NCBI RefSeq assembly: GCF_018336915.1
Contig: NZ_CP064923.1
Location: 3,480,001 to 3,512,000, forward strand
Source of the DNA: Acaryochloris marina S15
GTDB taxonomy: Bacteria > Cyanobacteriota > Cyanobacteriia > Thermosynechococcales > Thermosynechococcaceae
Direction of reading: 5' to 3'
DNA length: 32,000 bases
This document shows, piece after piece, positions 4,658 through 31,659 of this stretch; position 1 is the stretch's first letter, and each line of letters begins with the position of its first letter. The notes beneath the pieces were generated by a model. The model worked only from the letters and a program-made list of their open reading frames with translations, had not been told where the DNA came from and did not search any database. Made by a program: the position numbers and the translations under genes.

Positions 4658-4683
4658 CTCGGGAACTTGAGTGGCTGGTTTTG

Positions 4684-5334
4684 TCAGTACCTTCTCTGCT
4701 CTATTCGCTGGGGGGATAGGGTTGGGCTCGCGGGCTTGGCAACGGAAGGAGGCTTGATGGCAGACTTCTCTGTAGCCACAGGCTTCTCGGGTGCACGAGT
4801 GGGTTCTGGGCGAATAGGCTTAGGAGCCTGCAAGGGCTCAGATGAATCTGCTGCACTCACAGATGGAGGCGCTGCACTCACAGATGGAGGCGCTGCACTC
4901 ACAGATGGAGGCGCTGCACTCACAGATGGAGGCGCTGCACTCACAGATGGAGGTGTTGCACTCACAGATGGAGGCGCTGCACTCACAGATGGAGGTGCTG
5001 CTAAAGTCTCAGCGGGTTTTGAGGGTTGTTTACGCAGCTCAAGAATTTGTTGTTTTTTGGGTCGATCTTGCTTGACTGGCTTGGCAATGGGGCGAGGCTT
5101 TTGCGCACTGCCTTCCTTGGCAGCAGCCGGCTTGCGGTTGGGCTGATTTGCCTTTTGGCTAGATGGATGATTTTTGGCAGCAGATCGAATTTTTGCGGCT
5201 TCATCCTCAGTAATCGTACTGCTGTGATTTTTGACAGCAATATCGAGCTGATCGCATACTGCCAAAATGTCTTTGTTCTCCAAATTTAACTCTCTTGATA
5301 GCTCGTAAATTCTAATTTTGTGATTATTACTCAT
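4684..5334 (-). CDS. infB: IF-2 N-terminal domain plus repeat-rich linker, upstream fragment of frame-disrupted infB
   Basis: [46 protein letters not shown] is the conserved IF2_N domain. The ORF ends at TGA (4684-4686), eight codons after a C6 run. It lies in the +1 frame relative to the 2246..4657 fragment. Confidence 0.85.
4850..4996. repeat. Tandem repeat, 21 bp x 7 (plus a 5-nt partial copy), inside the infB linker
   Basis: The unit gctgcactcacagatggaggc repeats head-to-tail with only three substitutions over 147 bp. It encodes (SAAPPSV)x7 on the minus strand. Confidence 0.95.
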
Positions 5335-11854: not shown

Positions 11855-14800
11855 CTACCAGAGCGCTCGCACGGGAGGTGGAGATTCAGGTTCATCGCGC
11901 GAGGGCGCATCAATTTTTTGTTGAGGTGCAGGTCGCTCCACTGGAGGAGGCGATTGCTCAGAGGGTGTAGGGGATTGTTCACCAGGGTCACTGGGACGAG
12001 TGGTCTCACTTGGACTTATTTGTTCTATCGGATCAGGAGTTTGAGGAGTCCCCGATCCAGGAACTTTGCCTGGAGAAGGATCAGGTAGATTATCTGGCAC
12101 ATTACCAGGTTGGGGAGAAGGTGACGGTAAGGGCACAGGAATTGGGAATGGTTGGGACGTCGATCCACTCGGTGGCTCTGCACTAGGTTGAGGTGCAGGA
12201 GTTGCTCCTGGTATTGGTTCTGGGCTGGGTGTGGGTTGAGGTGTTGGACCTGGTATAGAACCAGGTGTGGGGCTTGGCACGGGAAATGGCACGGCTCCAG
12301 GAACTGACTCTGGTGCTGGAGCTGGGGTTGGGGCTGGACTGGGGGTTGGTGCAGGGGCAGGTTCTGGGGCTGGAGCCGGTATTGGGGCTGGTGTTGGGGC
12401 TGGTGTTGGGGCTGGAGCCGGTATGGGGCTTGGCGCAGGAAATGGCACAGATCCAGGTGTGGGTTCTGGAGTAGGTTCTGGCTCAGGGGTTGGCATAGGA
12501 CCAGGTTCCGGAGTCGGTTCTGGTGTTGGTATCGGTTCTGGTTCGGGAACTGGCTCTGGAGTAGGTGTCGGAGTTGGTTCTGGGGTTGGCTCAGCTTCAG
12601 GTGCTGGTTCTGGAGTAGGTTCTGGCTCAGGGGTTGGTGTAGGACCAGGTTCCGGAGTCGGTTCTGGGGTTGGCTCAGGTGCTGGTGTTGGTATCGGTTC
12701 TGGTTCTGGAGTCGGCTCTGGCTCAGGTGTTGGTTCTGGAGTCGGCTCTGGCTCTGGAGTAGGTTCTGGAGCTGGTTCGGGAGTTGGCTCTGGAGTCGGC
12801 TCTGGAGCTGGTTCTGGAGTTGGTTCTGGCGTTGGTTCGGGAGCTGGCTCTGGAGTAGGTGTCGGAGTTGGTTCTGGGGTTGGCTCAGGTGCTGGTTCAG
12901 GAACTGGCTCTGGCTCAGGAGCTGGGGTTGGCTCTGGCTCTGGCTCTGGAGTTGGCTCTGGCTCTGGCTCTGGAGTTGGTTCTGGAGCTGGTTCTGGTTC
13001 TGGTTCTGGCGTTGGTTCGGGAGTCGGCTCAGGTTCGGGAGTTGGTGTCGGAGTCGGCTCTGGTTCTGGAGTTGGTGTCGGAGTCGGCTCTGGTTCTGGC
13101 TCAGGTTCTGGAGTAGGCTCATCTGAACCATTGTTATTGCCTGCAACACTGGTAATCCTGCTGCCTGTAGGATCTGTATCAATCGTTTCTAGATAGCCCA
13201 AGCAGCGGGTGCTGGCATCACCACTCGTTGTGGGTTCCCAGCAGGCACTGTTGTTGGAATCTTGCCCATTCGCAGTCAGACTAATGGATTGCCCATTATC
13301 AGCCCCCCCTAATGTTGTTTGGGCAGCATCATCCCACAGCCCTAATGATGCAGGGGGTGGGGTATTAATCGCTGTACTGCTGCTTGTATTTTTACCGTAG
13401 GCAATGTAGTCAATAATCTGGTTTTGGCCATCGTATAACCAGACATCATCCCCGGTGTTATTGAGTTTTGGACGTTGCCCTAACCAGGCTTGAAAAGCTG
13501 CATCTGGGGCCTGATGGGCGGATATAGGATTACCTTGAGCATCTTTCTCACTGCCAATCCAAACAACCGCATATTCCCCTGGTTGGAGGATGGTATTAGC
13601 GGGAAAAACGTAGGGGCTGGTATTGCCTGTAATACTTCCGGTATTGCCATCTATATCGCCATCCAGAATATTGCCATCTATTAATTGCAATCCGCCAATA
13701 TCAACTGCTTCATCTGATGGATTGAATAGCTCAATAAACTCATCGTTATTCTCAGCATTGGCTCTGCCAATCGTTTGTTTGTAAAGCACCTCATTGATAA
13801 CGATTTTCCCAGACAGGGGCGATAGCTGAGGTGGATCACCTGCTTCGGACGATGGTTCTGGGTCTGGTGTAGGTTCGGAAGCTGGCTCAGGTGTTTCTGC
13901 TCCACCCTCTGGTTCAGGAGTAGGAGTGGGTTCGGGGGCAGGATAAGGGGTTGGGTCGGGAACTGGCTCTGGAGTAGAGTCTGGGGCTGGCTCAGCTTCA
14001 GGTGCTGGTTCTGGAGTGGGTTCAGGCTCAGGTGTTTCTGCACCGCCCTCTGGCTCGGGGGTTGGCTCTGGCTCAGGGGTAGCTTCTGGCGCTGAATCGG
14101 GTGTTCCTGGGCTACCCTCCGGTTCAGGTGTTGGGTCGGAAATTGGTTCTGACTCGGGTTCTGGAGTAGGTTCAGGAGCGGGTTCGGGTTCGGGAGTGGG
14201 TTCAGGCGTTGGCTCAGCTTCAGGAGCGGGTTCGGATTCTGGAGTAGGTGTAGGCTCAGGGTTTTCTGCTCCCCCCTCTGGCTCTGGAGCAGGAGTGGGC
14301 TCTGGTTCTGGAGTTGGAGTCGGTTCGGGAGCAGGCGTAGGCTCTGGTTCTGGGGTGGGTGGCGGAGCAGGCTCAGTTTCTGGCTCTTGAAAGGGAAGAC
14401 AACTAAATGACAAAGAGTTGAGGCGACCACTTTTACTTCCCTTGGGTTTTAGTGCACCGATTCGATAGCGGAAACTACTGACATTCTCATAAGAAGCAGT
14501 TATTAAAGTTTGCGTTGCATCTGTGCTGATACCCGGTTGCGTCTTGACTGTATTGGATTCAAAGCGACCAGATGGAGGGGTAATAGTTGGCTTTAGGGTC
14601 GTGGGATTCTCGAGGGTATAGCTAGAGAATCCCTCTAGCTCGATGTACTCCCTTAAGTCTTTACTATCTCCATCTATGTCTACACCGGAAGCATTGAAAG
14701 CTTTGATGGTGGTAGGTGTGTTCGATCCTGTTTCTACAAAACTGATAATCAGGTCTACACTCGAATCCCCTTTTTGCTTGGAAGCATTGAGAGTAGGCTG

Positions 14801-15202
14801 CAGAGCATCTGCGGACCCTGTGCTGGCATTATCAATTGCCCCTAAGGTTGCACCATTGTTGAACTTGTCCACCGTGACCAATGCATCAATACCAGGAGCA
14901 ACCTGGGTAAATCGGTAGATGGAGCCGATGGATAGGTTGGGTTGATTGTTTTCTTTTTTAGGATTACGAAAAGACAGCTCTACGATTGAGCTGCCATTAC
15001 ACATCTTGGTCTCTGCAATTTGGAAGACAGATGTTTCTGCGTTCTGAATTGAGGGGATGGGGGAGTAGATGCTCGGTGATGTTGGGGTCGCTGTATGGGT
15101 GGCAGAAGTGCGAGCTAAAGCGGCATCTGCTAAAAATGTGCATGCCATGAGAAGTGCAGCGAAGGGAGCACGATTGGCGAGTAATACTATCCAGCGACCC
15201 AT
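11855..15202 (-). CDS. Secreted lamin-tail-domain (LTD) protein with unknown N-terminal domain and two very long Pro/Glu/Thr spacers
   Basis: The ATG at 15202 has GGAG 9 nt upstream and opens a signal-peptide-like sequence ([30 protein letters not shown]). The LTD signature is [45 protein letters not shown]-type low complexity of about 190 aa precedes the LTD, and about 420 aa follows it. Confidence 0.85.
11900..13120. repeat. Low-complexity cryptic repeat (PEPTPEP.. then PAPTPAP.. then PS-rich) at the 3' end of the LTD gene
   Basis: Degenerate 6 to 12-nt periodic ggttct/ggctct/ggagtt motifs on the plus strand keep several frames open on both strands. Confidence 0.9.
13830..14395. repeat. 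Low-complexity PEPT spacer between the N-terminal domain and the LTD, punctuated by EPEGGAE(T/N)PEP
   Basis: The cryptic periodicity is the same. The EPEGGAE motif recurs three times, plus one EPEGSPGTP variant. Confidence 0.85.
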
Positions 15203-15476
15203 GATTTTTCTCCTCAGCCATCCATAAATGGGAAACTCTAATACTTGTATCACTTTGCGATCGCAAAAAAATTCCAATGCAATACACTTTTTGAGGAATC
15301 GTTTTGAATATCATTCCTGGTAGGTATTTCCCCGATCCCGCTAGATCTTGATTTTTTTATTTCGAGGCATTGATTCGTTTGGGATGTTGAGAATTATCTT
15401 GATTTTTCCTTAGATACCAAAGCCTGACATTTGTCCCATTTATGATGAGTTGGACAATCGCTAAGGTCAGGTCAAT

Positions 15477-16043: not shown

Positions 16044-16059
16044 AAGCCGCCTTTGCAAT

Positions 16060-16080
16060 ACCCGACTATTTTAGTCGGGT
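16060..16080 (+). terminator. Putative terminator hairpin after the 15477..16043 gene
   Basis: An 8-bp stem acccgact/agtcgggt with a 5-nt loop, 17 nt after the stop. The following U-tract is weak (AUAUUUG). Confidence 0.35.
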
Positions 16081-16084
16081 ATAT

Positions 16085-16113
16085 TTGACGGTATTTTATG
16101 CCCGTGTTAGCAT
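16085..16113 (+). promoter_or_regulatory. Sigma70-like promoter candidate for the thrC-like operon
   Basis: TTGACG (16085-16090), a 17-nt spacer, then TAGCAT (16108-16113), about 55 nt upstream of the ATG at 16169. Confidence 0.35.
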
Positions 16114-16168
16114 CTAGCGAATTGAACAGATGCGTTGTTGACGTATTCCTATCGAAATTGCTAAACCC

Positions 16169-17467
16169 ATGACTCAAACCCTTACCAATCAATCTCGCAG
16201 CTCTGCTCTGAAAGCACTGAAGTGTAAAGAATGCGGAGCCGAGTACGAACTGCAAGCAACCCACGTTTGTGAACTCTGCTTTGGCCCCCTAGAAGTAAGC
16301 TATGACTTCAGCCGCCTTAGCCAGCCGATTACTCGTGAAAGTATTGAAGCCGGTCCCAACTCCATTTGGCGGTATCGCTCCTTCTTGCCCGTTGAGACAG
16401 ATACCCCGATTGATGTGGGAACGGGCATGACCCCTTTAGTGAAGTCCCATCGGTTAGCTCGGCAATTGGGGCTCAAGAATCTATATATCAAGAACGACGC
16501 CGTCAATATGCCCACCCTGAGCTTTAAGGATCGGGTGGTATCGGTAGCGTTGACTCGGGCACAAGAGTTGGGTTTCTCGACCGTGTCCTGTGCCAGTACT
16601 GGTAACTTGGCAAATTCAACAGCTGCCATCGCAACTCGGGCGGGCCTCGATTGCTGCGTGTTCATTCCAGCGGACTTGGAAGCGGGTAAGGTCATGGGTA
16701 CCCTCATCTACGGTCCAACGGTAATGGCTGTTCAAGGCAACTACGATCAGGTCAATCGCCTCTGTTCAGAGGTCGCCAACACTCACGGTTGGGGCTTCGT
16801 CAACATCAATCTGCGTCCCTATTATTCTGAAGGCTCCAAAACCCTCGGATATGAAGTGGCTGAGCAACTGGGTTGGGAACTTCCTGATCATATTGTTGCG
16901 CCCCTCGCTTCGGGCTCTCTGTTTACCAAGATTTATAAGGGTTTCCGCGAATTTATCGATCTCGGTTTAGTCGATGAAAAAGCCGTGCGGTTTAGCGGTG
17001 CCCAGGCCGAAGGCTGCTCTCCCATTGCCCAAGCCTATCGGGAAGGCCGCGACTTCATCAATCCGGTGAAACCCAATACAATTGCCAAATCCATTGCCAT
17101 TGGTAATCCTGCCGACGGGGTTTATGCCATCGATATTGCCAAGAAAACCAATGGCACGATTGAATCGGTTACCGATGCTGAGATAGTTGAAGGCATGAAG
17201 TTGTTGGCTGAAACAGAAGGCATCTTTACAGAAACAGCTGGCGGCACTACCGTCGCTGTCCTTAAGAAGCTCGTCGAAGCCGGTAAAATTGACCCAGAAG
17301 AAAAAACTGTGGTCTACATCACGGGCAACGGCCTCAAGACCCAAGAAGCGGTCCAAGGTTGCATCGGTCAGCCCTTTGAGATTGAGCCTAAACTCGGAAG
17401 TTTTGAGCGAGCCCTAGAGCGCTCCCGCACATTGGATCGGTTGGACTGGCAACCTGTGCTTGTATAG
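16169..17467 (+). CDS. thrC: Threonine-synthase-family PLP enzyme with N-terminal zinc-ribbon
   Basis: The PLP-lysine motif is [18 protein letters not shown] and the C-terminal ITGNGLK are present. The N-terminal four-Cys ribbon is [14 protein letters not shown], as in the archaeal/actinobacterial ThrC clade. Confidence 0.88.
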
Positions 17468-17510
17468 GCTGTTAGTCGTTTCATTTGTTTCTCTATTGCA
17501 GTTGAATCCT

Positions 17511-17786
17511 ATGTCCGTTACTGTCCTTATTCCTACGCCCTTACAAAAGCTGACGAAAAATCAGGCGACCGTCGAATGTGACGGCAGCAGCATTGGCGAA
17601 TTACTAGAATCCTTGGAACAAAGTTGTCCAGGAATTAAAGCACGTCTTTGTGATGAGAAAGGCGAATTGCGCCGTTTCGTCAACTTTTATGTAAATAATG
17701 AAGATATCCGTTTTTTAGAGGGACAACAAACGGCCCTCAAAGACGGTGATGAAGTTAGTATCATTCCTGCGATCGCAGGGGGGTAA
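17511..17786 (+). CDS. CysO/MoaD/ThiS-family ubiquitin-like sulfur-carrier protein ending in Gly-Gly
   Basis: The 91-aa protein from the ATG at 17511 ends ..[14 protein letters not shown]-stop. The internal [14 protein letters not shown] closely resembles the mycobacterial CysO pattern as I recall it (RFVNIYVNDEDVRF .. LPAVAGG). The gene starts 43 nt after the thrC-like stop. Confidence 0.88.
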
Positions 17787-17798
17787 ACCAACAAACCT

Positions 17799-18197
17799 AT
17801 GGCAGAAGCAGAAAAGAAAGCAGCCGAGGCTGCCCCAGCAGCAAAACCGAAAGAAAAGAAGCCTAAGCTCGAAGATAAGCCCTTTGCAGAGTTTGTCCAG
17901 CAAGACTATCTTCCAGCCCTTGAGAAAGCCTTGGCTGCTAAAAGTATTAGTGATTTGCAGCTAAACTTTGCAGACAACAACATCACGGGTGAATGGCTAA
18001 ATGGCACCCGCCAGTTTACGGTGTATTTCCCCGAAGGCGATATCAAAAAGCAGCGGGCCTTTTCCTGGTCTAATACAGGCAGCAACCCCAGTACAATTGA
18101 GCCCTTTCTCTGCGACGAGCGGAAAATCACTCTAGAGTTGCTCGTCTTTGGAGTAGTCCAGCGGCTAAATGCCCAGAAGTGGTTAGGTGGGAATTAA
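17799..18197 (+). CDS. Hypothetical protein with Lys/Ala-rich N-terminus, probably co-transcribed with the sulfur-carrier gene
   Basis: The ATG lies 12 nt after the carrier-protein stop. The protein is 132 aa, and after the N-terminal KKAAEAAPAAKPKEKKPK stretch it has a globular-looking composition. The family was not confidently recognised. Confidence 0.6.
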   Translation: MAEAEKKAAEAAPAAKPKEKKPKLEDKPFAEFVQQDYLPALEKALAAKSISDLQLNFADNNITGEWLNGTRQFTVYFPEGDIKKQRAFSWSNTGSNPSTIEPFLCDERKITLELLVFGVVQRLNAQKWLGGN

Positions 18198-18400
18198 ACC
18201 TCTTTTTCAACCCTATTCCTAAACCTAAGGGACCTTAATGCTTAAGGACCTCCCTGGCGGTTGGTATCGCCTTACAGCAGTATCTGTCACGGCCCCAAGG
18301 CACTTATTTTTAAATTCGGAAATCAAGGAATTATCAGGGAGTAGGGAATAAGAGGCGACCTATACTTCCCTCCAAACAATCACCCCATAAAAAGGGACAT

Positions 18401-18432
18401 GCCTGTATGAGTCACGAATGACTCATACAGGC
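18401..18432 (-). terminator. Strong hairpin downstream of the chemosensory operon (putative terminator)
   Basis: A perfect 13-bp stem gcctgtatgagtc/gactcatacaggc with a 6-nt loop, 45 nt after the stop at 18477. A U5 tract begins 8 nt after the stem on the minus strand. Confidence 0.5.
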
Positions 18433-18476
18433 ATCTCTGTAATAATCCTAGATCGATGGCAATTAAGCCGATGACT

Positions 18477-18998
18477 TTAGATCGAGCCAAGCTGTTCAGG
18501 ATCCAGTAAGAACAAAGGATCAACCCCTCCATCATCAACAATCATGGAGCTGACACAGTGGATATTGCCCCGATCAAGATAAGCCTCAGGCAAGGAGGCA
18601 AACTGGGATTTTCCAGCTCGACGAATGGTCGGCTGGGAATCGATAGGGACGCCCACAACATCGCCTGCTTCAGTTTTAACCAGAACTAAACATCGTTGAA
18701 GCTCCTCTTCAGGTAAAGGTACAGCACCTTGCTTATCCTCTACCAGGGGTTGAGCCGTCTCATTAAAAATTCGATGTCCAACATCCACAACCGTAATTTC
18801 TTGACCTTGGTGAAGGATGAGGCTAATGCCCGTTTGATATGGATCACCATGCAGCTGCCCTAAGGGAATGACTTTTTGTACCGCCTTCACTGGTAACGCA
18901 AACCATTCTCCCCGGAGTTGGAAGGCAATAAGCTGTTCAGTTGCTTCGGTTTTGCGATTGGCACCCCGCTGCGATCGCACCGATGAAAAAATAGCCAT
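18477..18998 (-). CDS. CheW-like coupling protein (second CheW of the operon)
   Basis: A CheW-domain pattern is present (LIAFQLRGEWFALPVKAVQKVIPL .. VGVPIDS). The ATG is at 18998, and the track's TTG at 19007 is an alternative start. The gene starts about 10 to 20 nt after the CheA stop. Confidence 0.8.
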   Translation of the reverse strand: MAIFSSVRSQRGANRKTEATEQLIAFQLRGEWFALPVKAVQKVIPLGQLHGDPYQTGISLILHQGQEITVVDVGHRIFNETAQPLVEDKQGAVPLPEEELQRCLVLVKTEAGDVVGVPIDSQPTIRRAGKSQFASLPEAYLDRGNIHCVSSMIVDDGGVDPLFLLDPEQLGSI

Positions 18999-19017
18999 AG
19001 CATTCAATCACTCAAAA

Positions 19018-22000
19018 TCATTTTGCTTGGGTAAACTGCTCAAGGGTTTGCAGAAGCTCTTTCTCTCTAAAGGGTTTGGAGAAATAGGCAGAAGCGCCCA
19101 GAGTCATTGCTAACTTACGATGCTTATCCCCACTTCGGGACGTCAGCATTGCCACAGGAATCGACTTAAAGTCAGCCTTAGCCTTCACATGGGCCAAGAA
19201 GCCGTAGCCATCCATCCGAGGCATCTCAATATCACACACCACGGCCTGAATCGGCAGACCTGAATCGAGTTTTTCCAGAGCATGTTGGCCATCCTTAGCC
19301 TGCTCAACCCGGTATCCTGCCTTTTCTAGCGTTAGGGCAAGGAATCGGCGAACATTAACGGAGTCATCCACCACCATTACCAAAGGCTGCTCAGTAGCGG
19401 TATCTAAAAGTGGAGTGTCGGAGCCAGATAAAGCACCTGCCAAACCACTAGAACCACTGGAGAAATCATTATTGCGATCATTCATCCAGTTGAGCAGACT
19501 GAGAGCATCGATCAGGGGAATAACCCGACCATCCCCCAAAATCGTACAGCCCGCAAAGCCTTCCGGCATAGCAATATTCCCTTCCGCCTGACGAATGGTA
19601 ACTTCCTGTTCACTCCAATAGCGATCGACCTTCAAGCCCACTAACTCATTGCCATCAGCCACCATCAACACCGTAGGAGCATTGATACTAGGAGACTCTT
19701 CTGTATCCGGCAATTTCGCGATTCGGGGCAGTTTCAACCACTGACTGAGGCGAACCAACGGCACCATTTCCCCATCCCAGTTCAGGACTTCGGCCCCTGC
19801 ACTATCTAAAACATCTTCAGAATTCAGTAGCATCATTTCTTCAATGATATCGGTGGGGAAGGCCAACATCATATTGGCAACTTCTACGAGCAATACCCGA
19901 ATGACCGATAAGGTGAAAGGCACAGAAATGGTAAAGGTCGTTCCTACCCCGGCTTCCGTTTCAACGGCAATTGTGCCTCTAATTTTTTGGAGATTGGTGC
20001 GGACCACATCCATGCCGACACCTCGGCCAGACAAATCGGTCACTGCAGATGCCGTGCTAAATCCAGGTTCAAAAATCAAATCGAGTAAATCACTGGTGCT
20101 GGCATTGCGAAGATCCTCCGCGTCCAGCCCCATTTCCATGGCTCGATTTTTAATTTTATCGAGGTTAATACCGTCCCCATCATCCTTGATCGTAATTTGA
20201 GTTTGGTTACCTCGATACATTGCCCGAATTTCGATCACCCCCTTCGGGGGTTTACCGGCAGCAACCCGCGCTTCCGGCTTTTCGATCCCATGATCAAAGG
20301 AGTTGCGGATTAAGTGAATCAGCGGATCATTCAAGGATTCTAGAATTGAGCGGTCGACCAGGGTCGTCCCCCCGATAATCTTCAGCTCAACTTGCTTACC
20401 AAAGCGTAAACTCAAATCCCGCAATACTCGGGGGAATCGGCTGAGCAATTCCGAGACCGGACGCATTCTTACTTGCGTCATGTTGGTCTGAATCAGTTTT
20501 GAGGTTCGAGTGAGTCCTCGGGTGGTTTGTTCCGCATCCCCCAAACTGGTATTAATATCCCCAGTAACCTCCTGAATTTGTACCGCAGCTTCCATCAATT
20601 CTTGGGATAGCAAGTGCATTTCGCTGTAGCGGTCCATCTCTAGCAAATCAAAATCACTATCGAGATGCGGGTTACTATAGCTTGCTGGCGGTGTCGAACC
20701 ATTGGTCGGGCTGCCCACTCCAACAGGAACAGCCATCGCTGGCAAAGCCTGGGCAGACACTTCCTGCACTGAAATTTTGTCGTAGGCGGCACGCAACTGA
20801 GCATTCGACTTATCAAGGGTGTGAACCCGGTCTCGCAACAGCTCGGTTAGATCCCGCAACTGCTTCAACTGCATTTGCAAACCATTTCGTTCAATAATCA
20901 GCTCTCCAAATAACTCATTGAGCTGATTGAGCTTACTAACCGGAACTCGAATCGTCGTATCTGCAGCCTCTGGTGCCGCTGCTGCAGCCGCCATCGGTTT
21001 GGCAACCGTCCGGGTCGAAGCACGCTTCCGAGCCGGTTTGCGTTCAGCAACTTTCGGCGCTTCTACAGGGGGACTGACCGACTGATCAGGAGTCGCGTCA
21101 AAGGAACTAATCAGGTCTACCGCTTCTGCAGCAAATGAGTCAGACCACTCTACCTCTTCTGCTATTTCTGGCTGAGTTGTAGAACTCTCCACCTCAAGGG
21201 CAGGCGCAGCCGTTTCTTCGGGGACGAAGGATTCAATTTCTTCAGCAATACCTGCCAAATCCACATCGGCAAAAGCATCCAAGTCTGCGGCGGGAGCGAG
21301 CTGTGGTTCTTCTAGCGCCGGTATCTCTACAGAAGAAGCGGCTTCTGAGGGGGCAACTGCTTCTAAATCTTGGGGTTCTAGGGTTAGGTCCGCCCCTGCA
21401 AATAGGTCGGATTCTGCGGCGGCTACTTCCAACTCTTGGGGGTCAAATTCTAACTCAGCCCCTGCAAATAAGTCTGGCTCGGCTACAGTCGCGTCTAATT
21501 CTTGAGGTTCAAATTCTAGCTCAGCCCCTGCAAGCAAGTCGGCTTCAGCTGGATCGGCTATTCCCAAATCGAGGGGTTCTAGAGAAAACTCCATGCCTGC
21601 AAATGGATCAGCGTCTTCCGGTGTCAGATCCGCTGAAACATCAGCAGGTTGTCCGATGGCACCTGCAATCTCTCCCAGAGAGCTAACATCCAGAGCGTCA
21701 GGAATCGCATCTTTTTGGCCCACTAGGACCATAGCTTGCGATCGCCGAAGTTCTTGCAAACCCACTTCAGCAATTTTGATCTGCTGATCTGGATCAGTTG
21801 AAGACTTCAGATATTGCAATGTTGACTGACATAAACCGTGAAATGCAGGTATATCAAGCATTTCTCCTAATCCACCTAATTCCTCCAGGGTGGAATCAAA
21901 TTCAGCGACGATGATACTTACATCTTGACTGGCCATTTGCTCTTCTAACCGAGTCAGGCATTCTTCTACTTCTGACTCAAAAAGCACAAAGCTCATGTCT

Positions 22001-22449
22001 TCCCCCACCTCAGAAGAGAGGAGTGACGCTTCGTCCTCTGGCTGCGGGTCACCCAGTAAATCATGGAGTTGTTCCATAACCGGGTTGGCTTGGGTTTCGA
22101 GCCACTGCTCGTCAACGTCATCCCCCTGTTGATTAAGGGTTGCAACCTGACGCATGAAATCCATGCCCGTTAGCAACAGGCTTTCGGCTTCGCCATTCAC
22201 CTCGACTTTACCGATTTTAAGGACTTTGAAAAAGTCCTCCAGACGGTGGGCCAACTGACTCAGGTTATGGAAGCCCATCAAGGCGGCTCCCCCCTTAACG
22301 GAGTGGGCAGCTCGCAGAACGCCATCCATTTGTTGTCGATCAACACCGCTGGTGCCTATTCCCAGAAGGCCCGATTCAATTTGGTGACAATGCTCAAAGG
22401 CTTCTTCCAGAAACTGAAGGCGAACTTCCTGTTCACTATCGTGGGACAT
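19018..22449 (-). CDS. pilL: Hybrid CheA-type histidine kinase (Hpt, long acidic linker, dimerisation/HATPase, CheW-like domain, receiver)
   Basis: The Hpt motif is AAHSVKGGAALMG. The N-box is HLIRNSFDHGIE, G1 is DDGDGIN and G2 is GRGVGMDVV. A CheW-like segment follows, then a C-terminal REC (VVDDSVNVRR..CDIEMPRMDG..SKPF). The symbol is assigned by analogy to cyanobacterial Tax/Hmp loci. Confidence 0.92.
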   Translation of the reverse strand: MSHDSEQEVRLQFLEEAFEHCHQIESGLLGIGTSGVDRQQMDGVLRAAHSVKGGAALMGFHNLSQLAHRLEDFFKVLKIGKVEVNGEAESLLLTGMDFMRQVATLNQQGDDVDEQWLETQANPVMEQLHDLLGDPQPEDEASLLSSEVGEDMSFVLFESEVEECLTRLEEQMASQDVSIIVAEFDSTLEELGGLGEMLDIPAFHGLCQSTLQYLKSSTDPDQQIKIAEVGLQELRRSQAMVLVGQKDAIPDALDVSSLGEIAGAIGQPADVSADLTPEDADPFAGMEFSLEPLDLGIADPAEADLLAGAELEFEPQELDATVAEPDLFAGAELEFDPQELEVAAAESDLFAGADLTLEPQDLEAVAPSEAASSVEIPALEEPQLAPAADLDAFADVDLAGIAEEIESFVPEETAAPALEVESSTTQPEIAEEVEWSDSFAAEAVDLISSFDATPDQSVSPPVEAPKVAERKPARKRASTRTVAKPMAAAAAAPEAADTTIRVPVSKLNQLNELFGELIIERNGLQMQLKQLRDLTELLRDRVHTLDKSNAQLRAAYDKISVQEVSAQALPAMAVPVGVGSPTNGSTPPASYSNPHLDSDFDLLEMDRYSEMHLLSQELMEAAVQIQEVTGDINTSLGDAEQTTRGLTRTSKLIQTNMTQVRMRPVSELLSRFPRVLRDLSLRFGKQVELKIIGGTTLVDRSILESLNDPLIHLIRNSFDHGIEKPEARVAAGKPPKGVIEIRAMYRGNQTQITIKDDGDGINLDKIKNRAMEMGLDAEDLRNASTSDLLDLIFEPGFSTASAVTDLSGRGVGMDVVRTNLQKIRGTIAVETEAGVGTTFTISVPFTLSVIRVLLVEVANMMLAFPTDIIEEMMLLNSEDVLDSAGAEVLNWDGEMVPLVRLSQWLKLPRIAKLPDTEESPSINAPTVLMVADGNELVGLKVDRYWSEQEVTIRQAEGNIAMPEGFAGCTILGDGRVIPLIDALSLLNWMNDRNNDFSSGSSGLAGALSGSDTPLLDTATEQPLVMVVDDSVNVRRFLALTLEKAGYRVEQAKDGQHALEKLDSGLPIQAVVCDIEMPRMDGYGFLAHVKAKADFKSIPVAMLTSRSGDKHRKLAMTLGASAYFSKPFREKELLQTLEQFTQAK
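21393..21600. repeat. Diverged 66-bp (22-aa) tandem repeat x3 plus a degenerate fourth, in the CheA linker
   Basis: cccctgcaa recurs at 21393, 21459 and 21525. The unit encodes an acidic DL(F/L)AGAELEF(E/D)PQEL(D/E) motif. Confidence 0.8.
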
Positions 22450-22543
22450 GGTTTATCTCTCAGTACCAATTATTAACTCGGCAATCAGCCTGCGCCCGAT
22501 ATCAAGATTGAGTCAATCTTGTAGGGCGTTGTATGAAAAGGGC

Positions 22544-22584
22544 GGGTCAAAGCTGAATGAGGTCAGCCTATCTAGCTTTGACCC
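22544..22584 (-). promoter_or_regulatory. Intercistronic hairpin between the MCP and CheA genes
   Basis: An 11-bp stem gggtcaaagct/agctttgaccc with a 19-nt loop, starting 13 nt after the MCP stop. CUUUUC lies 3 nt after the stem on the minus strand. A second 8-bp hairpin is at 22503-22521. Confidence 0.5.
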
Positions 22585-22597
22585 ATCGGACTTCTAG

Positions 22598-24991
22598 TTA
22601 GGCTTCGCCAATTTTGAAGGTACTCACAGAAGTTTGGAGCTGCTTGGCAATTTCCACCGTTTCTTGTAGTGATTCGGCCACTTGGCGCGAAGAATCAGAG
22701 GTATTCTCAGACACTTTCGCCACGTTTTGAACCAGCTTAGACAGCATCTGGGCTTTCGCCGTCTGGGATGCGGTAGAACCAGAAATCGTTTGCACCAAGT
22801 CCGAAATCTGTTGGGACACTGACACAATTTGGCCAAGGCTTTGCTTGGTATCTTGGACCATGCGTGTTCCTTCAACCACCTGGGTTGTACCCACTTCCAT
22901 CGCGTTGACCACCTCAGCAGTTTCTAGCTGAATGTTCTCCACAATTTGCTCAATTTCCTTCGTTGCTGTTGCAGACTGAGACGCTAGCGCACCCACTTCT
23001 TCCGCAACCACCGCAAAACCCCGACCTTCTTCACCAGCTCGAGCCGCCTCAATACTGGCGTTAATGGCCAGCAAGTTGGTCTGCAAGGCAATTTGGTTAA
23101 TCAAAGAAACCGCTTTAGAAATCTGCTGAGAAGATTCACCCAATCGTTTCACTTTCTTAGCCGTTTCCGCAACGGTTTCGCGGAGCTGGTCAATACTCGC
23201 CACTGTGAGATCCATAGTGTTTCCACCATTCACCGCTGTTTCAGAGGCTGTCTTGGCGATTTCGGCAGCCTGTTGAGCGTTATCCGCAACTTCTTGGGCA
23301 GCTTGGGTCAAATCTTCCACGAATTGGAGGGACTGTTCCACTTGCTCGGCCTGGGCTGACGCCTCATCCGCCAACGTCACAATAGACGAGCTATTGGTTG
23401 ACACTGAATCGTTCACCTGGGCAGAGGCAACTTGCACCTGGGCCACAATATCTCTCAAGTTCTCAATAATGGAGTTAAAGAAGTCACCCACAATTCCGAT
23501 TTCGCTGGCGTCCACGTTGGCTCGGACAGTTAAGTCTCCATCAGAGGCCGCTTCAACGTCGGTCAATAGGGTCAGCAAGTCCGACTGCAACGCTTCATTC
23601 TGTTTTCGCTGGGTTTCGGCAGCTTCTTGCTGTCGTTTTAATTCTTGTTGAGAGGTATATTCTTGCTCCAACAACAGGGTTTGAAGTTGTTCCGCCATGG
23701 TGTTGATGTTGCCCCCCAGTTGAGCAAGCTCATCCTCTCCAGAGATATTTACCCGAGTCTCCAAGTCTCCTAGACCAATTGCGTTCACCGCTTCAGCAGA
23801 CTCAATAATCGGTCGAGTAGCCCGTTCGGAGATAACGACCGCCAGGGCACCCACCACCACCGCGGCTGCGAGGGTACCTAGAATCAGGGCCAACTGCAAC
23901 TGAGCCACCGATTGGAAGGCCACATCCTTATCTGTTTCCAGAATGACTTTCCAGCCCAAATCGGGTAAGTTTGCCAAGAACGGGTCGTCAGAACTGTTTA
24001 AGGTGTCGAACGGCACAATGGTCTCTAACTTGCCATCTTTATCGAGGGTTTGAATCTCTGAGGTCTTGACATCCTTAAACCAGGAGAATTTCTCATTGCC
24101 AGTTAAGGGCTTTCCGGTTTTATTGGCTGCCAGAATGGCTGCTTTGGCTTCATTCGATCCTGCAAACAGGTTGCCGTTTTGATCCACCAGATAGCCATTT
24201 TCATGGCCTTCAATGCCCTTGAGCAAATCTTCCAGGAAGGTTACTGGCATTCTGGCCCGGACCACACCAATGGGTTTGCCAGAGGTTCGATCAAGCACCA
24301 CATTAGCGGTGTACACCGAGATTACCCCAGAAGATTGAGACAATAGGGGCTGAGAAATAATGGGTTGTCCAGATTTTACGGCGGCTTGGAAATAACTCCG
24401 GTCGCTGTGATTATCCAGGGCCTTGCCCGATGATTGGGCCATGACGTTTCCCTTCAAGTCGAAGAAAGCAACACTGTTGTAGATGGTGTAAGCCTTAATA
24501 AACTTGTCTAGGGATGCTTGTTTCGCTTCCCTAGAAGTAGATTTGCGCAGGGCCGGATCGACGAGAACATCCAAACCAGACATAATCTGGATGTCACCAT
24601 ATCTCTCCCGCATGTAGGAGGCAACCTTAGCCGAGATCTGGGTGGTCAGACTTTTTTTGTTCTCAATAATCTTGTTCGAAACCGAGTCGTTGGCAATAAA
24701 GTTGGCAACGAGTCCAATCACCGCTACGGGGATAACCCCCAGGGCAACCGCCAATGCCGTGGCCTTAGTTTTGAGTCCAAATCGCTGGGACAGGGGCTTC
24801 GCGGCCGCTGCTGGTGCAGAGGTAGCAATAGGTGCAGGGCTTTTCGAGATTTCTGCAACGGCCTTAGAGTCAGCCTCTTGCGGGTACGCCTCGTTTAAGC
24901 CAGAGGTCATCTGCTCTAGATCGAGGGGGACAATATTTTTGTCACCATGGCCATTATTGGTGGCTGTCTCATCTACATCTTTCATGTGCAT
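22598..24991 (-). CDS. pilJ: Methyl-accepting chemotaxis protein with two TM helices, periplasmic Cache-like sensor and HAMP
   Basis: The conserved signalling hairpin is [26 protein letters not shown]. The TM segments are [22 protein letters not shown] and [21 protein letters not shown], flanking a region of about 260 aa. No GAF or phytochrome domain is present, so this is not PixJ-type. Confidence 0.92.
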
Positions 24992-25171
24992 GGGGAATCG
25001 TGCCTCTCTGAATACGGATAATGTTGTATAGAAGATTCAAGGCTCAATGAGCCTAAGAAATAAAATTGCTGTAGTGCTTTCTCCAGGGGGAGATCTTGGA
25101 AGATCACCCCGTTTTAGTTAGTTTTGACCGAAGGATTTTTCAATACTTCAAAACCTTTCCCCCTGGTGGTA

Positions 25172-25666
25172 TTAACGCTGTAGTACGGATGAGTTAACAA
25201 TTGCGTCAGGGTCCAGAACCAATAGAATTTCTTTTTCTTCTGGCAAACACCCCCGCAAATAGGGCGCAATATTAGGGGCAACGGTACCAATGGGAGACTG
25301 AACCGTATCTGTGGCGAACCGCGTTACACCATGTACAGTTGGAACAGCTAAGCCGAGGGGAACCTTTCCCACTTGGAGAATGGCAACGTTGAATTGTCTA
25401 GCGTTGGCCATTAAGCCGGTATAGCCCAGCATGATGGACAGGTCCACCACCCAAAACACCCGACTTCGCTGGTTCAACAGACCCAGGACACAGGTAGGCA
25501 TATTGGGAATAGGCGAAACTTGCTCAACAGGCACCACAATGACTTCACGTGCTGCCTCCATGGGGAGTGCGACGGGCACACTCTCACTCAACCGCAACTT
25601 TAGGTAAGGATCACCTAATCCTTCCTGTGACGGCGATGATTGAAGGTCTAGGGTGGGCAGTGTCAT
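25172..25666 (-). CDS. pilI: CheW-like coupling protein
   Basis: A CheW-domain pattern is present (..VALPMEAAREVIVVPVEQVSPIPNMP..VLGLLNQRSRVFWVVDL..). The start is 3 nt after the CheY stop, indicating tight coupling. Confidence 0.88.
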   Translation of the reverse strand: MTLPTLDLQSSPSQEGLGDPYLKLRLSESVPVALPMEAAREVIVVPVEQVSPIPNMPTCVLGLLNQRSRVFWVVDLSIMLGYTGLMANARQFNVAILQVGKVPLGLAVPTVHGVTRFATDTVQSPIGTVAPNIAPYLRGCLPEEKEILLVLDPDAIVNSSVLQR

Positions 25667-25669
25667 GAC

Positions 25670-26026
25670 TTAAACAGACCGAACAGCTTGGAGCAAATCT
25701 TCGCGGGTGAAGGGCTTGGTTACATAAGCGTCTGCCCCTTGCTTTTTACCCCAGAGCTTGTCTAAGTCTTGATTCTTAGAGGTACAAATCACCACGGGTA
25801 ATTGCTGAGTCGCCTCATTCTTCTTCAAACTGCGACAGAGTTCAAAGCCACTCATGCCGGGCATCACTACATCCGTCACCACAAGATCGGGCTTCTGAGA
25901 TTCTGCTTTGGCTAAGGCATCCTTCGCATCGGTTGTGCTGATAACGGCATAGCCAGCTTCTCGTAAATAACTACAAATTAGCTCTAGTTCCGCTGGACCA
26001 TCATCCACTACTAAAATTGTTTTCAT
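25670..26026 (-). CDS. pilH: Single-domain CheY-like response regulator
   Basis: The protein is 118 aa, with ILVVDDGPAEL, DLVVTDVVMPGMSGFEL and a conserved T..KPF. Confidence 0.92.
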   Translation of the reverse strand: MKTILVVDDGPAELELICSYLREAGYAVISTTDAKDALAKAESQKPDLVVTDVVMPGMSGFELCRSLKKNEATQQLPVVICTSKNQDLDKLWGKKQGADAYVTKPFTREDLLQAVRSV

Positions 26027-26130
26027 TTGTTGTTGCTCCTAAAACAAATAAAGTTAAGCTTGTAAACTGTGGCCTCATCTGATGTCTTCAGAGTGCCCCT
26101 TTTTATAAAAAATACCCCTAGGTGTATTTT

Positions 26131-27360
26131 TTAGGTCAGGTGGCGAAAGACCATTTTTTGAAGATCCGCTTGGGTAAACGGTTTGGTTAAATAGTCCGTG
26201 GCCCCAGCAACTTTGGCTTTGGCCCGGTCAATTAACCCTGTGTTTCCTGTTACCATCACCACCGGAATTTTCTTGAATTGAGAATTCTTGCGGATCAGGC
26301 GACAAAGCTCGTAACCATCCACCCAAGGCATGCCGACATCTAACAAAATCAAATCCGGCTTAGCCCGCATAATTTGGATTAAGGCTTTCACTGGATCGCT
26401 GATCATCACAACAGAAACGTTTTGATCTTGCAGATATCGATTAATGGTATTGAGAATGGCGGGGCTATCATCCACACAGGCAATGGTGTAGCTCTTCTGG
26501 CCAATCTCGCTGGTGCCAATATTTCCTAATGCAGCATCACTATTGGACTGTGCGCCACTAGACTGAGGGGCATTGCCAACCGCCCCGATGGCCAATCGAG
26601 GTAACTGATTAAAGGGGGGTTGTGGATCTTGCAATAAGATTACTTTGTCCACAATCAAAGAGTTGAGGTTTTGGGCCAGTTGGAGTTCATCGAGGTTGAG
26701 TAGCACCCCAAGGTGGCGAAAGCTAAATCCTCGCAGAATTTTCTGTAACTGTTGAACTTTACTCGGAGATAATTTTGCTGCTCCAGGACTCTGCTCTGAA
26801 AAATAGAGCCGCTGATGGGGGGACCAAACCATTGGCCCTAAAGCTTGCCAGGCATTCAAACGTTTCTGACATTTTTGCAGTAAGGGGGGGATGGTCTGCT
26901 TGGTATAAACAGGAAGGTGAGCCGACTTAGGTAAAAACTTATAGGTTCCTTCAGAGACCAACAAATAGGACTCTAGAATCTCGACGACAATGCCTTCTAC
27001 CAAGGTTGCAGCTTCGGCAGGCTTTAGCTGGTTGGTTCTTACTAACCAAGAAATGGCTTGATAATCAGGGCAAATCTGCTCGGAGGAGTCGCCGTTAAAG
27101 TTGATTCTGACTTGAGTCCGTACTTCGCTGTTGAGGGAAGGAACCTGACGACTGAGCCGTCGCAAATGGTTATCTAACAGGTCCAGGGGGTCAGCCGAGT
27201 AGGTCGCATAAACTAACTGGCTTTCTTCAAGATAAAAAAACCAATTGATAGCGCCGTTAGAAACGACTAAGCAACCATCTTTTTTGGCATTAGCATGCTG
27301 GCTGAGCAAGTCTGCTACGTTCAACTTGTTTGAGATTTTGCCACTCATAGTTGCTGCCAT
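26131..27360 (-). CDS. pilG: PatA-type response regulator (N-terminal PATAN domain plus C-terminal receiver)
   Basis: The N-terminal DGCLVVSNGAINWFFYLEESQLVYATY pattern is typical of PATAN domains. The C-terminal REC reads IACVDDSPAIL..DLILLDVGMPWVDGYEL..TKPF. It is the first gene of the operon, as in pixG/pilG/hmpA. Confidence 0.88.
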   Translation of the reverse strand: MAATMSGKISNKLNVADLLSQHANAKKDGCLVVSNGAINWFFYLEESQLVYATYSADPLDLLDNHLRRLSRQVPSLNSEVRTQVRINFNGDSSEQICPDYQAISWLVRTNQLKPAEAATLVEGIVVEILESYLLVSEGTYKFLPKSAHLPVYTKQTIPPLLQKCQKRLNAWQALGPMVWSPHQRLYFSEQSPGAAKLSPSKVQQLQKILRGFSFRHLGVLLNLDELQLAQNLNSLIVDKVILLQDPQPPFNQLPRLAIGAVGNAPQSSGAQSNSDAALGNIGTSEIGQKSYTIACVDDSPAILNTINRYLQDQNVSVVMISDPVKALIQIMRAKPDLILLDVGMPWVDGYELCRLIRKNSQFKKIPVVMVTGNTGLIDRAKAKVAGATDYLTKPFTQADLQKMVFRHLT

Positions 27361-30208: not shown

Positions 30209-31174
30209 TTAATATGACTTGGCGGTAGGACGAGGCTGTAGACAGGCTTTGCAAATCGCTTCAATATGTCGATGGTCGGTCCCGCAACATCCCCCTAAGA
30301 CATTCAGGTTAGGTAAGGCATCACTTAAATTTAAATATTGCTGACCCAGTTCCTGGGGGTTACCATCATCGAGTTCTACCGCTTCATCCAATTCGGCATG
30401 GCTTTTGGTGGATGCATTGGCCCGAAGTCCATGAATGCGGGTCAGCCAAGGTTCGTTGGTTGCAAATATATGATCGAAATGGGATGGATGAGCACAGTTG
30501 ATCATGTAATAAATAGGTCCATTGCCCGTGGCGGCATCGACTTGTGCGATCGCATCTTTCAATACTTGCCCCGTCGGTAATTTGCCGTCAGTTTCCACGG
30601 TGAAGGAGATAACCACAGGCATACCGACTAAGTGGGCTGCTCTCGTAATGCCAATGGCTTCTTCGGCATAGGTCATGGTGACGGCACTGACCATATCGGC
30701 TTCGGCATCCCGAAAGGCTTCAATTTGAGGGAGATGGTATACCTGAGCTTCGGCTGGAGTCATGGCGGTATCGACCTGATACCCGTCTCCCCGAGGGCCG
30801 ATACAGCCACTAATCACCATGCGGCTGGTTTCGGTTTCGTATTGTTGGCGAATGGTATGCAGAAGTGCGATCGCATTCCGATTCATGGCGGCTAACTCGG
30901 CTGCATCATACCCAAGCTTGGTGCCCCAGTCTGGATTGGCTCTCCACGTTGCACTTTCTAGAATCAGGCCCACTTCATAGGTCTGAGCGAGCTGAGCATA
31001 GGTTTGAAAGTACTCGTAGAGAGCTTGATACCCTGGATTATCTTTTAATAAATCGAAGGCAGCAAAATTAGGTAAATCGATGCCTTGATGAAAGATTAGG
31101 GTGGTTTCTAGCCCCCCGTCCGTCAAAAAAACGTCGCTCGATAATTGGGGTAAATTTTGTCGATATTGAGGCAT
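30209..31174 (-). CDS. mmuM: Homocysteine S-methyltransferase family protein
   Basis: The N-terminal FLTDGGLETTLIF and the zinc-ligand motif GGCCGT near the C-terminus are present. The ATG at 31174 has GGGGAG 6 nt upstream. The track start at 31249 adds 25 unsupported residues. Confidence 0.85.
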   Translation of the reverse strand: MPQYRQNLPQLSSDVFLTDGGLETTLIFHQGIDLPNFAAFDLLKDNPGYQALYEYFQTYAQLAQTYEVGLILESATWRANPDWGTKLGYDAAELAAMNRNAIALLHTIRQQYETETSRMVISGCIGPRGDGYQVDTAMTPAEAQVYHLPQIEAFRDAEADMVSAVTMTYAEEAIGITRAAHLVGMPVVISFTVETDGKLPTGQVLKDAIAQVDAATGNGPIYYMINCAHPSHFDHIFATNEPWLTRIHGLRANASTKSHAELDEAVELDDGNPQELGQQYLNLSDALPNLNVLGGCCGTDHRHIEAICKACLQPRPTAKSY

Positions 31175-31659
31175 GGGCTGCTCCCCTGTCAGATGCATAT
31201 ACCTTTCAGGGTGTGGGATTTCAACAGACGGAACAATGATCACTATCACCCCAGTTCAACACCCCAATCACAGCCCCTACCGCTCATTTCACTGCCATTT
31301 ATTTTGCCGCCGTCGCATGGATTGGGTGATCTGTTTCCAACGAGCTTTGGTGTTGATCTGCGCTTTTTGATCTTGCTGGCGGTACAGATAGGCTTCTTCT
31401 TTGCGGATTAATCGTTTTGAATAAAAGTGACCATGCAGTGCAGGCTTTTGTCAGGATGTGCGAACGATGCAATTTCAGGCTGGGCAGGGGAAGCGGAGTC
31501 AGTGAATTCTATGCAAGCCGACCTATTCAGCAACATCCATCAGCAGAGCGTTAGCCTCAAGAAAGAGTTGCACTACTTCCTTCATAGTTTGTAGCAATGG
31601 TGATGGACTCTAGAGGGTAGCACGTTATTCTAAATGGGAGATCTAACTTGCATACTCTA

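Follow-up and report, generated by a model that had tools for sequence, protein, structure and literature searches.

We analysed a 32,000-nucleotide stretch of Acaryochloris marina S15 (contig NZ_CP064923.1, positions 3,480,001 to 3,512,000; hereafter the window), in which a gene for a threonine synthase (ThrC)-like pyridoxal phosphate (PLP) enzyme is followed by genes for a small Gly-Gly sulfur carrier and a 132-aa protein. This locus is likely to be a cyanobacterial MetM/MetO-type operon, the enzyme and its carrier being predicted to make homocysteine from O-phosphohomoserine. Its promoter would be under IscR-type control, with ndhV as a syntenic neighbour. The mechanism is read from homology and genomic context.

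The list of open reading frames (ORFs) of the window places all three genes on one strand, and the features of the locus are as follows.

16058–16082, no strand assigned: IscR type-1-like operator ATACCCGACTATTTTAGTCGGGTAT, a 25-bp inverted repeat that abuts the −35 box
16085–16113, plus strand: sigma-70-type promoter, −35 TTGACG, 17-nt spacer, extended −10 TGtTAGCAT (consensus scan and ortholog conservation)
16169–17467, plus strand: thrC-like gene, 432 aa, ThrC-family PLP enzyme, candidate homocysteine synthase of the MetM type (Pfam, NCBIfam and PDB matches)
17511–17786, plus strand: beta-grasp sulfur carrier of the MetO/CysO type, 91 aa, ending AIAGG-stop, 43-nt gap after the thrC-like gene
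17799–18197, plus strand: ndhV, NDH-1 subunit of the DUF2996 family, 132 aa, 12-nt gap after the carrier gene
18399–18434, minus strand: hairpin, a perfect palindrome with a 16-bp stem followed by a T-run on the minus strand only (terminator scan)

The last of these, between ndhV and a convergent CheW-like gene, is the terminator of the latter and sets the 3' boundary of the plus-strand unit. An earlier note on this DNA, made from the letters alone, had described a ThrC-family enzyme with an SFKDR PLP lysine and an N-terminal four-Cys ribbon, and a 91-aa beta-grasp protein ending AIAGG-stop 43 nt downstream; the residues were located and the coordinates agree. For the comparisons below, one genome per species was taken, which gave 80 cyanobacterial loci from many orders, including Nostocales. 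Domains in the window were scanned in ORFs of at least 120 aa, setting aside a 1140-aa proline-rich ORF and the overlapping or antisense ORFs.

The ThrC-like enzyme has a remodelled phosphate loop

The enzyme matched the Pfam PALP family (258 bits), together with a NinF-type ribbon, and the NCBIfam thrC model TIGR00260 (338 bits). Its Schiff-base lysine, Lys120, lies within LSFKDR and aligns with Lys61 of Thermus thermophilus ThrC, and the ribbon is formed by Cys19, Cys22, Cys34 and Cys37 (CxxC-N11-CxxC). The protein is 100% identical to the annotated threonine synthase of Acaryochloris sp. 'Moss Beach'. Across the 80 cyanobacterial loci the identity was 82–87%, and the four-Cys ribbon was present in every one of them. 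Solved threonine synthases were its nearest PDB matches (172–209 bits); CysM and CysK were not among the PDB matches. The cysteate synthase model also matched, at 92 bits with the ribbon included.

The window protein was aligned to five solved threonine synthases, using the chain numbering of the T. thermophilus enzyme, in which the PLP lysine, Lys61, agrees with the literature. The segments that differ are given below, T. thermophilus ThrC first and the window protein second.

STGN-T88; STGN-L147 (alignment to 1uim)
N154-S155-V-N157-P-H-R160-L-EG-Q164-KT; N212-I-N214-L-R216-P-Y-Y219-S-EG-S223-KT
PVG-N188-AGN; PLASGSL

We take Thr88, Asn154, Ser155, Arg160 and Asn188 of T. thermophilus ThrC to be the residues that hold the substrate and product phosphate. 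The phosphate retained in ThrC directs water to C-beta. In the 1uim alignment the window protein departs from this canonical substrate-phosphate loop at most of these positions: T88 is replaced by L147, S155 by N214 with a one-residue insertion, R160 by Y219 and N188 by S, and N154 is kept as N212. The changes that characterise the clade, in T. thermophilus numbering, are T88 to L, N157 to R, R160 to Y, Q164 to S and GNAGN to ASGSL.

The resulting signature, STGNL / VNxNxRP[YF]YxEGSKT (scanned as STGNL / RP[YF]Y.EGSKT), was found in 120/120 cyanobacterial hits, in at least 112 of 120 actinobacterial hits and in every riboswitch-linked homologue described below; the five solved ThrCs keep the canonical residues. 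A phosphate loop remodelled in this way would fit a changed outcome of the reaction.

The carrier is CysO-like and always follows the enzyme gene in cyanobacteria

The carrier matched Pfam ThiS (PF02597, 72 bits). Its best solved relative is Mycobacterium tuberculosis CysO (3dwg_C, E 7.6e-22, 49% identity over the full length), and a further CysO-like relative in the PDB is 4n6e_B from Amycolatopsis; the best MoaD entry reached only 2.4e-11. It scored 20.8 bits on the NCBI moaD model, for which the cut-off is 66, and 17 bits on the thiS model. The suggestion that the carrier is CysO-like rather than MoaD was correct, as CysO stands well ahead of the MoaD entries. A MoaD identity was ruled out by this ranking, by the low moaD score and by the presence of a separate moaD-type gene in the same loci.

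The carrier gene was found directly 3' of the thrC-like gene, on the same strand, in 80/80 cyanobacterial loci, with a median gap of 118 nt, so that the adjacency seen in the window is conserved in its relatives. Of the complete cyanobacterial carriers, 77/78 end in A[VI]AGG-stop. The carrier also adjoins a ThrC-like gene in two more distant, non-cyanobacterial lineages. The earlier note had asked whether the carrier might track with molybdopterin genes; it follows the ThrC-like gene instead, and the molybdopterin-type carrier is a gene of its own in the same loci. Such a second carrier, of the moaD type and about 86 aa long with a PPVSGG end, immediately precedes the operator and promoter in 24/80 loci (for example L011:8666-8950 and L031:9629-9886); it matches the moaD model best, at 59.8 bits. 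It is thus common for two different Gly-Gly carriers to be neighbours, and the window has no moaD-type gene in that place. The genes that recurred as neighbours across the 80 loci were ndhV, moaD, a TM2-domain gene and a rubrerythrin-domain gene; rhodanese genes were not recurrent neighbours in them.

Two of the non-cyanobacterial carriers beside ThrC-like genes are tailed after the Gly-Gly pair, one by 17 residues (L204:6432-6758) and the other by 5 (L206:3531-3821). These tails imply proteolytic maturation. The cyanobacterial carrier ends exactly at Gly-Gly, and so no C-terminal maturation is needed.

Relatives and literature point to methionine

In Streptomyces albulus, O-phosphohomoserine is converted to homocysteine by the ThrC homologue MetM and the sulfur carrier MetO, acting with MoeZ and Mec, and an S-adenosylmethionine (SAM) riboswitch lies upstream of metM (Hasebe 2024, as relayed by PMC12172450 and GapMind 2026). 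The earlier note had mentioned such a Streptomyces pair, which these two accounts of Hasebe 2024 describe. It knew of no cyanobacterial description, which does not hold: PMC12172450 relays from Hasebe et al. 2024 that MetM/MetO homologues are distributed among cyanobacteria, and itself studies a Microcystis orthologue of the window protein with its metO-like neighbour. As MetM/MetO was published in 2024 with cyanobacterial homologues already noted, the type of pathway is known and the window locus adds a member to it. PMC12172450 puts the identity of the Microcystis orthologue to MetM at 51.6% and that of its neighbour to MetO at 47%. In the same work threonine induced the Microcystis thrC 10.5-fold and the metO-like neighbour 6.8-fold, and methionine reversed the induction of thrC. 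In our view such a pattern would be expected of methionine starvation through feedback on the aspartate pathway.

Homologues outside the cyanobacteria were consistent with a role in methionine synthesis. A search of representative sequences yielded P0125, an actinobacterial relative with 53% identity. In Micromonospora and Actinoplanes its orthologues keep the ribbon, share 53% identity with the window protein along the full length and follow SAM-I riboswitches (RF00162; 69–73 bits, cut-off 44). A 55%-identical homologue, from a metagenome contig that is not cyanobacterial, is accompanied by both a SAM riboswitch (71.5 bits) and a ThiS-family carrier, the latter with 17 residues after Gly-Gly. 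A 64%-identical homologue is followed by a carrier that is 56% identical to that of the window (Gly-Gly plus 5 residues) and then by a NIL-domain gene. The riboswitches and carriers in these relatives indicate that the clade has repeatedly come under SAM control and has repeatedly been paired with this type of carrier.

The NIL-domain gene, directly after the ThrC-like/carrier pair of this metagenomic homologue, encodes a 78-aa protein (PF09383; L206:3826-4062). Other proteins with this domain are the MetN methionine transporter and proteins of sulfur metabolism.

It had also been proposed that the pair adds carrier-bound sulfide to O-phosphohomoserine to yield homocysteine. This proposal gains comparative support from the 80/80 adjacency, from the CysO-like nature of the carrier and from the SAM riboswitches in three other lineages, all of which are compatible with such a reaction. 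None of the three refuting conditions of the earlier note, as far as they could be put to the test, spoke against it.

A conserved IscR type-1-like operator abuts the promoter

The promoter pointed out earlier, TTGACG-17-TAGCAT, is present, and taken alone it is no better than chance: six such sites were observed in comparison with 3.4 ± 1.7 in shuffled sequences. Its support comes from the conserved upstream block across the orthologs, where −35 TTGAC, the spacer and TGnTAnnAT occur at constant spacing in about 64/71 distinct promoters; the spacer is 17 nt in 56 sequences and 18 nt in 8. The upstream alignment revealed this block in about 72/79 sequences, with the consensus A-W-W-CCCGAY, seven A/T, RTCGGG-TAT, gTTTGAC (−35), 17 nt and TGnTAnnAT (extended −10).

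The inverted repeat within the block resembles the type-1 sites of the iron-sulfur (Fe-S) regulator IscR. The E. coli iscR and nfuA sites agree with the type-1 consensus, ATASYYGACTRWWWYAGTCRRSTAT, to within 1–3 mismatches. The window copy, ATACCCGACTATTTTAGTCGGGTAT (16058–16082), has 0 mismatches to this consensus, where 0.00 were expected in shuffles. Site A of the E. coli K-12 iscR promoter (PiscR), ATACCCGACTAAATCAGTCAAGTAA, has the same base as the window site at 19/25 positions, and at 11/11 in the left half; it is followed by a second site, ATAGTTGACCAATTTACTCGGGAAT. In the nfuA promoter of E. coli the site reads ATAACCAACTAAAATAGTCAACTAT. In 67/80 cyanobacterial loci there is a single copy of the core CCCGAY-N7-RTCGGG, always upstream of the thrC-like gene. 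It is conserved across cyanobacterial orders, the cyanobacterial consensus being relaxed at the central T/A positions, and neither the window nor 1.29 Mb of cyanobacterial flanks yielded further copies.

A conserved RNA hairpin was considered as another explanation of the inverted repeat and was rejected. The arms are near-invariant, compensatory changes are few, and C-A or T-T mismatches are numerous at the variable positions. This pattern favours a protein-binding DNA site over an RNA hairpin. Secondarily, the repeat may also act as a terminator for the upstream gene. A SAM or any other riboswitch was likewise ruled out, as the region before the window gene gave no Rfam match, whether at the gathering threshold or with E values of up to 10.

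A scan of metagenomes for the repeat returned 27 cyanobacterial thrC-like promoters and 3 more cut by contig ends, along with about 45 ordinary terminators from other phyla. Three gammaproteobacterial hits between metH and nfuA raised the possibility of a methionine regulon sharing the repeat. This was rejected: they would be the IscR type-1 site of nfuA, which lies 44–71 nt upstream of that gene, and they match neither the MetR consensus (ATGAA-N5-TTCAT) nor ATC-N10-GAT, the core common to the gammaproteobacterial SahR and SamR motifs (PMC4239095). In these three contigs, with a GC content of 0.49 to 0.61, the divergent metH-nfuA intergenic region contains an identical 27-bp perfect palindrome, TATACCCGACTAAAATAGTCGGGTATA (L120:5853-5873, L139:6500-6520 and L152:9347-9367), which we read as the putative nfuA site. 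A second conserved block, ACAATTGAACGATGCGAGGATT, lies nearer metH in the same contigs.

Another motif, resembling GTTGAC(G/A)G, was observed downstream of the cyanobacterial promoter in 32/72 loci examined, mostly of Nostocales and Chroococcidiopsidales, and in roughly 25 of these 32 it stands about 9–10 nt after the −10 box. Its counterpart in the window, GTTGACGT, is located further downstream (16133–16150).

IscR type-1 sites are typical of Fe-S assembly genes (PMC8593673), and Synechocystis encodes an IscR homologue, Slr0846 (PMC7058544). Rrf2 proteins of the Slr0846 type would be the obvious candidates for the regulator that recognises the operator. As an IscR type-1-like operator flanks the promoter, control by the Rrf2/IscR family is probable. 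In cyanobacteria such a regulator probably takes the place of the SAM riboswitch at this operon; we infer both the identity of the protein and the sign of the regulation. The operator is absent from the earlier note and appears to be a new element of the locus. Among the literature searched, no paper linked an IscR-type site to this operon, and a full-text motif search gave irrelevant matches only.

The third gene is ndhV

The 132-aa protein matched DUF2996 (PF11210, 149 bits). It aligned over residues 7–132 with NdhV (Tlr0472) of the Thermosynechococcus NDH-1–ferredoxin structures (6KHI chain V/6L7O; E 9e-41 for 6khi_V), and the two have an identical C-terminus, QKWLGGN. NdhV is the DUF2996 protein of the cyanobacterial NDH-1 complex (PMC12038448). 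By these matches the third gene is NdhV, an NDH-1 subunit. The length of 132 aa and the 12-nt spacing given earlier for this protein stand, and its description as unknown does not.

A gene for NdhV was found downstream on the same strand within 1.5 kb in 28/71 loci with enough sequence, and within 6 kb in 34/80. With ndhV within 1.5 kb in only 28/71 loci, it is not a demonstrated part of a sulfur module, and its inclusion in a three-gene sulfur-insertion module, as first proposed, is not upheld. NdhV is probably a passenger, its synteny recurrent and non-obligatory, functionally separate and with no demonstrated role in the sulfur chemistry. In the window itself, the 12-nt gap makes co-transcription of ndhV likely.

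Proposed mechanism and points that weigh against it

Transcription would start from the conserved promoter at 16085–16113. The carrier would be adenylated and thiocarboxylated at its C-terminal Gly-Gly by an unlinked E1-rhodanese of the MoeZ/MoeB type. The ThrC-like enzyme would bind O-phospho-L-homoserine on Lys120 and eliminate phosphate to give a PLP-bound vinylglycine-type intermediate. At this stage threonine synthase would add water at C-beta; here, the carrier thiocarboxylate would attack C-gamma. The adduct could yield homocysteine directly, or through an S-to-N acyl shift followed by hydrolysis by a JAMM (Mec-like) peptidase, a release similar to that in the CysO/Mec and HcyS/HcyD systems. 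Homocysteine would then be methylated to methionine.

Several observations speak against this assignment. Membership of the MetM type is judged by proxies, namely 53% identity to SAM-riboswitch-linked actinobacterial proteins, the loop signature and the reported 51.6% identity between the Microcystis protein and MetM. The protein passes the NCBI equivalog cut-offs for threonine synthase (TIGR00260, 338 against 167 bits; PRK08197, 303.3 against 303). The window gene has no SAM riboswitch or other Rfam element upstream. Among the window ORFs of 120 aa or more that were scanned, none has a ThiF/E1 or JAB/JAMM domain, in agreement with the earlier note, and no E1 or JAMM gene was recurrent in the 80 flanks. 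Finally, the Microcystis orthologue shows weak threonine synthase and threonine deaminase activity, and gave no clear homocysteine with Na2S and no rise of methionine in vivo (PMC12172450).

Alternative functions of the pair

It is unlikely that the enzyme is a housekeeping threonine synthase, as annotated, with a carrier that serves another pathway and stands next to it for historical reasons. The equivalog scores agree with such a function, as do the nearest solved structures, which are all threonine synthases, and every database source gives the protein this name; the Microcystis orthologue also made some threonine from O-phosphohomoserine in vitro (PMC12172450). However, an adjacency of 80/80 across orders is unexpected for unrelated genes. 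The loops that contact the substrate phosphate and the PLP phosphate are unlike those of all five solved ThrCs and yet invariant in the clade, and the homologues are found under SAM riboswitches, not under threonine-related signals. A second, canonical ThrC is also available: Microcystis and other cyanobacteria have a separate ThrC2, the two copies being conserved (PMC12172450), and in Synechocystis both sll1172 and sll1688 are annotated thrC. A canonical thrC was not found in the 32-kb window or in the loci compared. MetM is often misannotated as threonine synthase (GapMind 2026).

In PMC12172450 the Microcystis orthologue is interpreted as a bifunctional threonine synthase/deaminase, a 'moonlighting ThrC' that acts in threonine and isoleucine metabolism. 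Assays in vitro on a protein more than 80% identical to that of the window, and its 10.5-fold induction by threonine, both come from that study and speak for this proposal, to which we give a low probability. It leaves unexplained the obligate Gly-Gly carrier, co-induced 6.8-fold. Induction by threonine that methionine reverses is, in our interpretation, what methionine starvation would be expected to produce, and the SAM riboswitches on the homologues point to methionine as well. In addition, the assays were run with Na2S as the sulfur source and not with the thiocarboxylated carrier.

There is also little chance that the pair makes another sulfur compound, either cysteine from O-phosphoserine, as CysM-CysO does, or a thio-intermediate for Fe-S or cofactor assembly: CysO of the CysM pathway is the closest solved relative of the carrier, ThrC relatives can use O-phosphoserine (the cysteate synthase match, ribbon included, is in line with this) and a thio-intermediate would fit an operator of a type usual at Fe-S assembly genes (PMC8593673), but the only characterised members of the clade make homocysteine (Hasebe 2024, as relayed by PMC12172450 and GapMind 2026), the homologues with the same active-site signature are SAM-regulated, and the enzyme is far from CysM/CysK.

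Neighbourhood of the operon

The operon is surrounded by a CheW/CheA/methyl-accepting chemotaxis protein (MCP) cluster, a giant proline-rich ORF, RPE65, smpB and rimP-nusA-infB. The chemotaxis-like cluster (18477–27360, minus strand) is convergent to ndhV and consists of the CheW-like gene, a hybrid CheA with a receiver domain, a dCache/HAMP MCP, CheW and a DUF4388-receiver protein. The 1140-aa ORF (11855–15277, minus strand) is mostly Pro-Glu-Pro-Thr repeats, the composition of which creates several long overlapping ORFs on both strands. The infB gene (IF-2; 2246–5334, minus strand) is present as two ORFs in different frames, 4684–5334 with the IF2_N domain and 2246–4657 with the rest. The frame changes near a C-run at about 4707–4712; a sequencing error, a genuine frameshift or a split gene might each account for this.

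At 30209–31249 on the minus strand, 12 kb from the operon, a stand-alone 346-aa protein has a homocysteine S-methyltransferase domain (PF02574, 129 bits). It is under every NCBIfam equivalog cut-off and has no copy of the operator upstream. This protein could be a consumer of the homocysteine made by the operon.

Implications

If the assignment is true, thousands of cyanobacterial 'threonine synthase' genes are homocysteine synthases, and sulfur enters cyanobacterial methionine biosynthesis via a protein thiocarboxylate acting on O-phosphohomoserine. This would bear on metabolic models, on the way threonine toxicity in bloom-forming Microcystis is interpreted and on the evolution behind the O-phosphohomoserine branch point of plants, and it conflicts with the 'moonlighting ThrC' reading of PMC12172450. 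The IscR-type operator offers a concrete handle on the regulation of methionine synthesis in cyanobacteria.

A broader scheme can be put forward only tentatively, as we doubt it more than we favour it. MetM/MetO may be the main or only route to homocysteine in cyanobacteria, its operon being connected directly, by a type-1 operator kept throughout the phylum, to an Rrf2 regulator of the IscR type that senses Fe-S. In that case methionine synthesis would follow the status of Fe-S clusters and sulfur trafficking, not SAM, and the linkage to ndhV and moaD may reflect a shared economy of sulfur and Fe-S clusters.

Comparison with known systems

The closest parallel is MetM/MetO of S. albulus (Hasebe et al. 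2024, Appl Environ Microbiol 90:e01247-24), as far as the relayed accounts describe it: both combine a PLP enzyme homologous to ThrC with a small Gly-Gly carrier of the ThiS/MoaD type, and the presumed substrate is O-phosphohomoserine. Actinobacterial orthologues have both the ribbon and the active-site signature of the window protein. Unlike MetM/MetO, the window locus has no SAM riboswitch and has an IscR type-1-like operator at the promoter. No carrier gene was called beside the enzyme in Micromonospora and Actinoplanes, whereas it is always adjacent in cyanobacteria; and cyanobacterial carriers stop at Gly-Gly, whereas the two non-cyanobacterial metagenome carriers bear 5–17 extra residues.

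The CysO-CysM-Mec-MoeZ system of M. tuberculosis (PDB 3DWG) has a carrier to which that of the window is 49% identical, with the same Gly-Gly end. There a protein thiocarboxylate attacks a PLP-bound intermediate formed from a phosphorylated hydroxy-amino acid, and the same logic is predicted for the window pair. The PLP partner in the window is of the ThrC family and not of the CysM/CysK type, mec and moeZ are unlinked at the locus, and the predicted substrate is O-phosphohomoserine (gamma-replacement) rather than O-phosphoserine (beta-replacement).

In Wolinella succinogenes, the HcyS-MetY-HcyD-HcyF system, reportedly the work of Krishnamoorthy and Begley in 2011, is said to use a protein thiocarboxylate as the sulfide donor for homocysteine synthesis, which is the role predicted for the carrier here. 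The enzymes differ: MetY is said to be a fold-type I O-acetylhomoserine sulfhydrylase acting on O-acetylhomoserine, whereas the window enzyme is a fold-type II ThrC homologue.

With canonical threonine synthases (T. thermophilus 1UIM, Bacillus subtilis 6CGQ, Aquifex 2ZSJ and M. tuberculosis 2D1F) the window protein has in common the fold and the SFKDR Schiff-base lysine. It differs from them by an extra N-terminal four-Cys ribbon of about 60 residues, and by STGNL in place of STGNT, N-x-N-x-R-P-Y-Y-x-EGSKT in place of N-S-x-N-P-x-R-x-EGQKT and PLASGSL in place of PVGNAGN.

Lastly, the operator is a 25-bp inverted repeat like the E. coli IscR type-1 operators of iscR, erpA and nfuA, and its half-site ATACCCGACTA is identical to that of PiscR site A. 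Site A lies immediately upstream of the −35 box, and this is also the placement of the window operator. Both E. coli and metagenomic gammaproteobacteria have this motif at nfuA. Unlike the E. coli sites, the window operator belongs to a different phylum and precedes an amino-acid biosynthesis operon instead of an Fe-S assembly operon.

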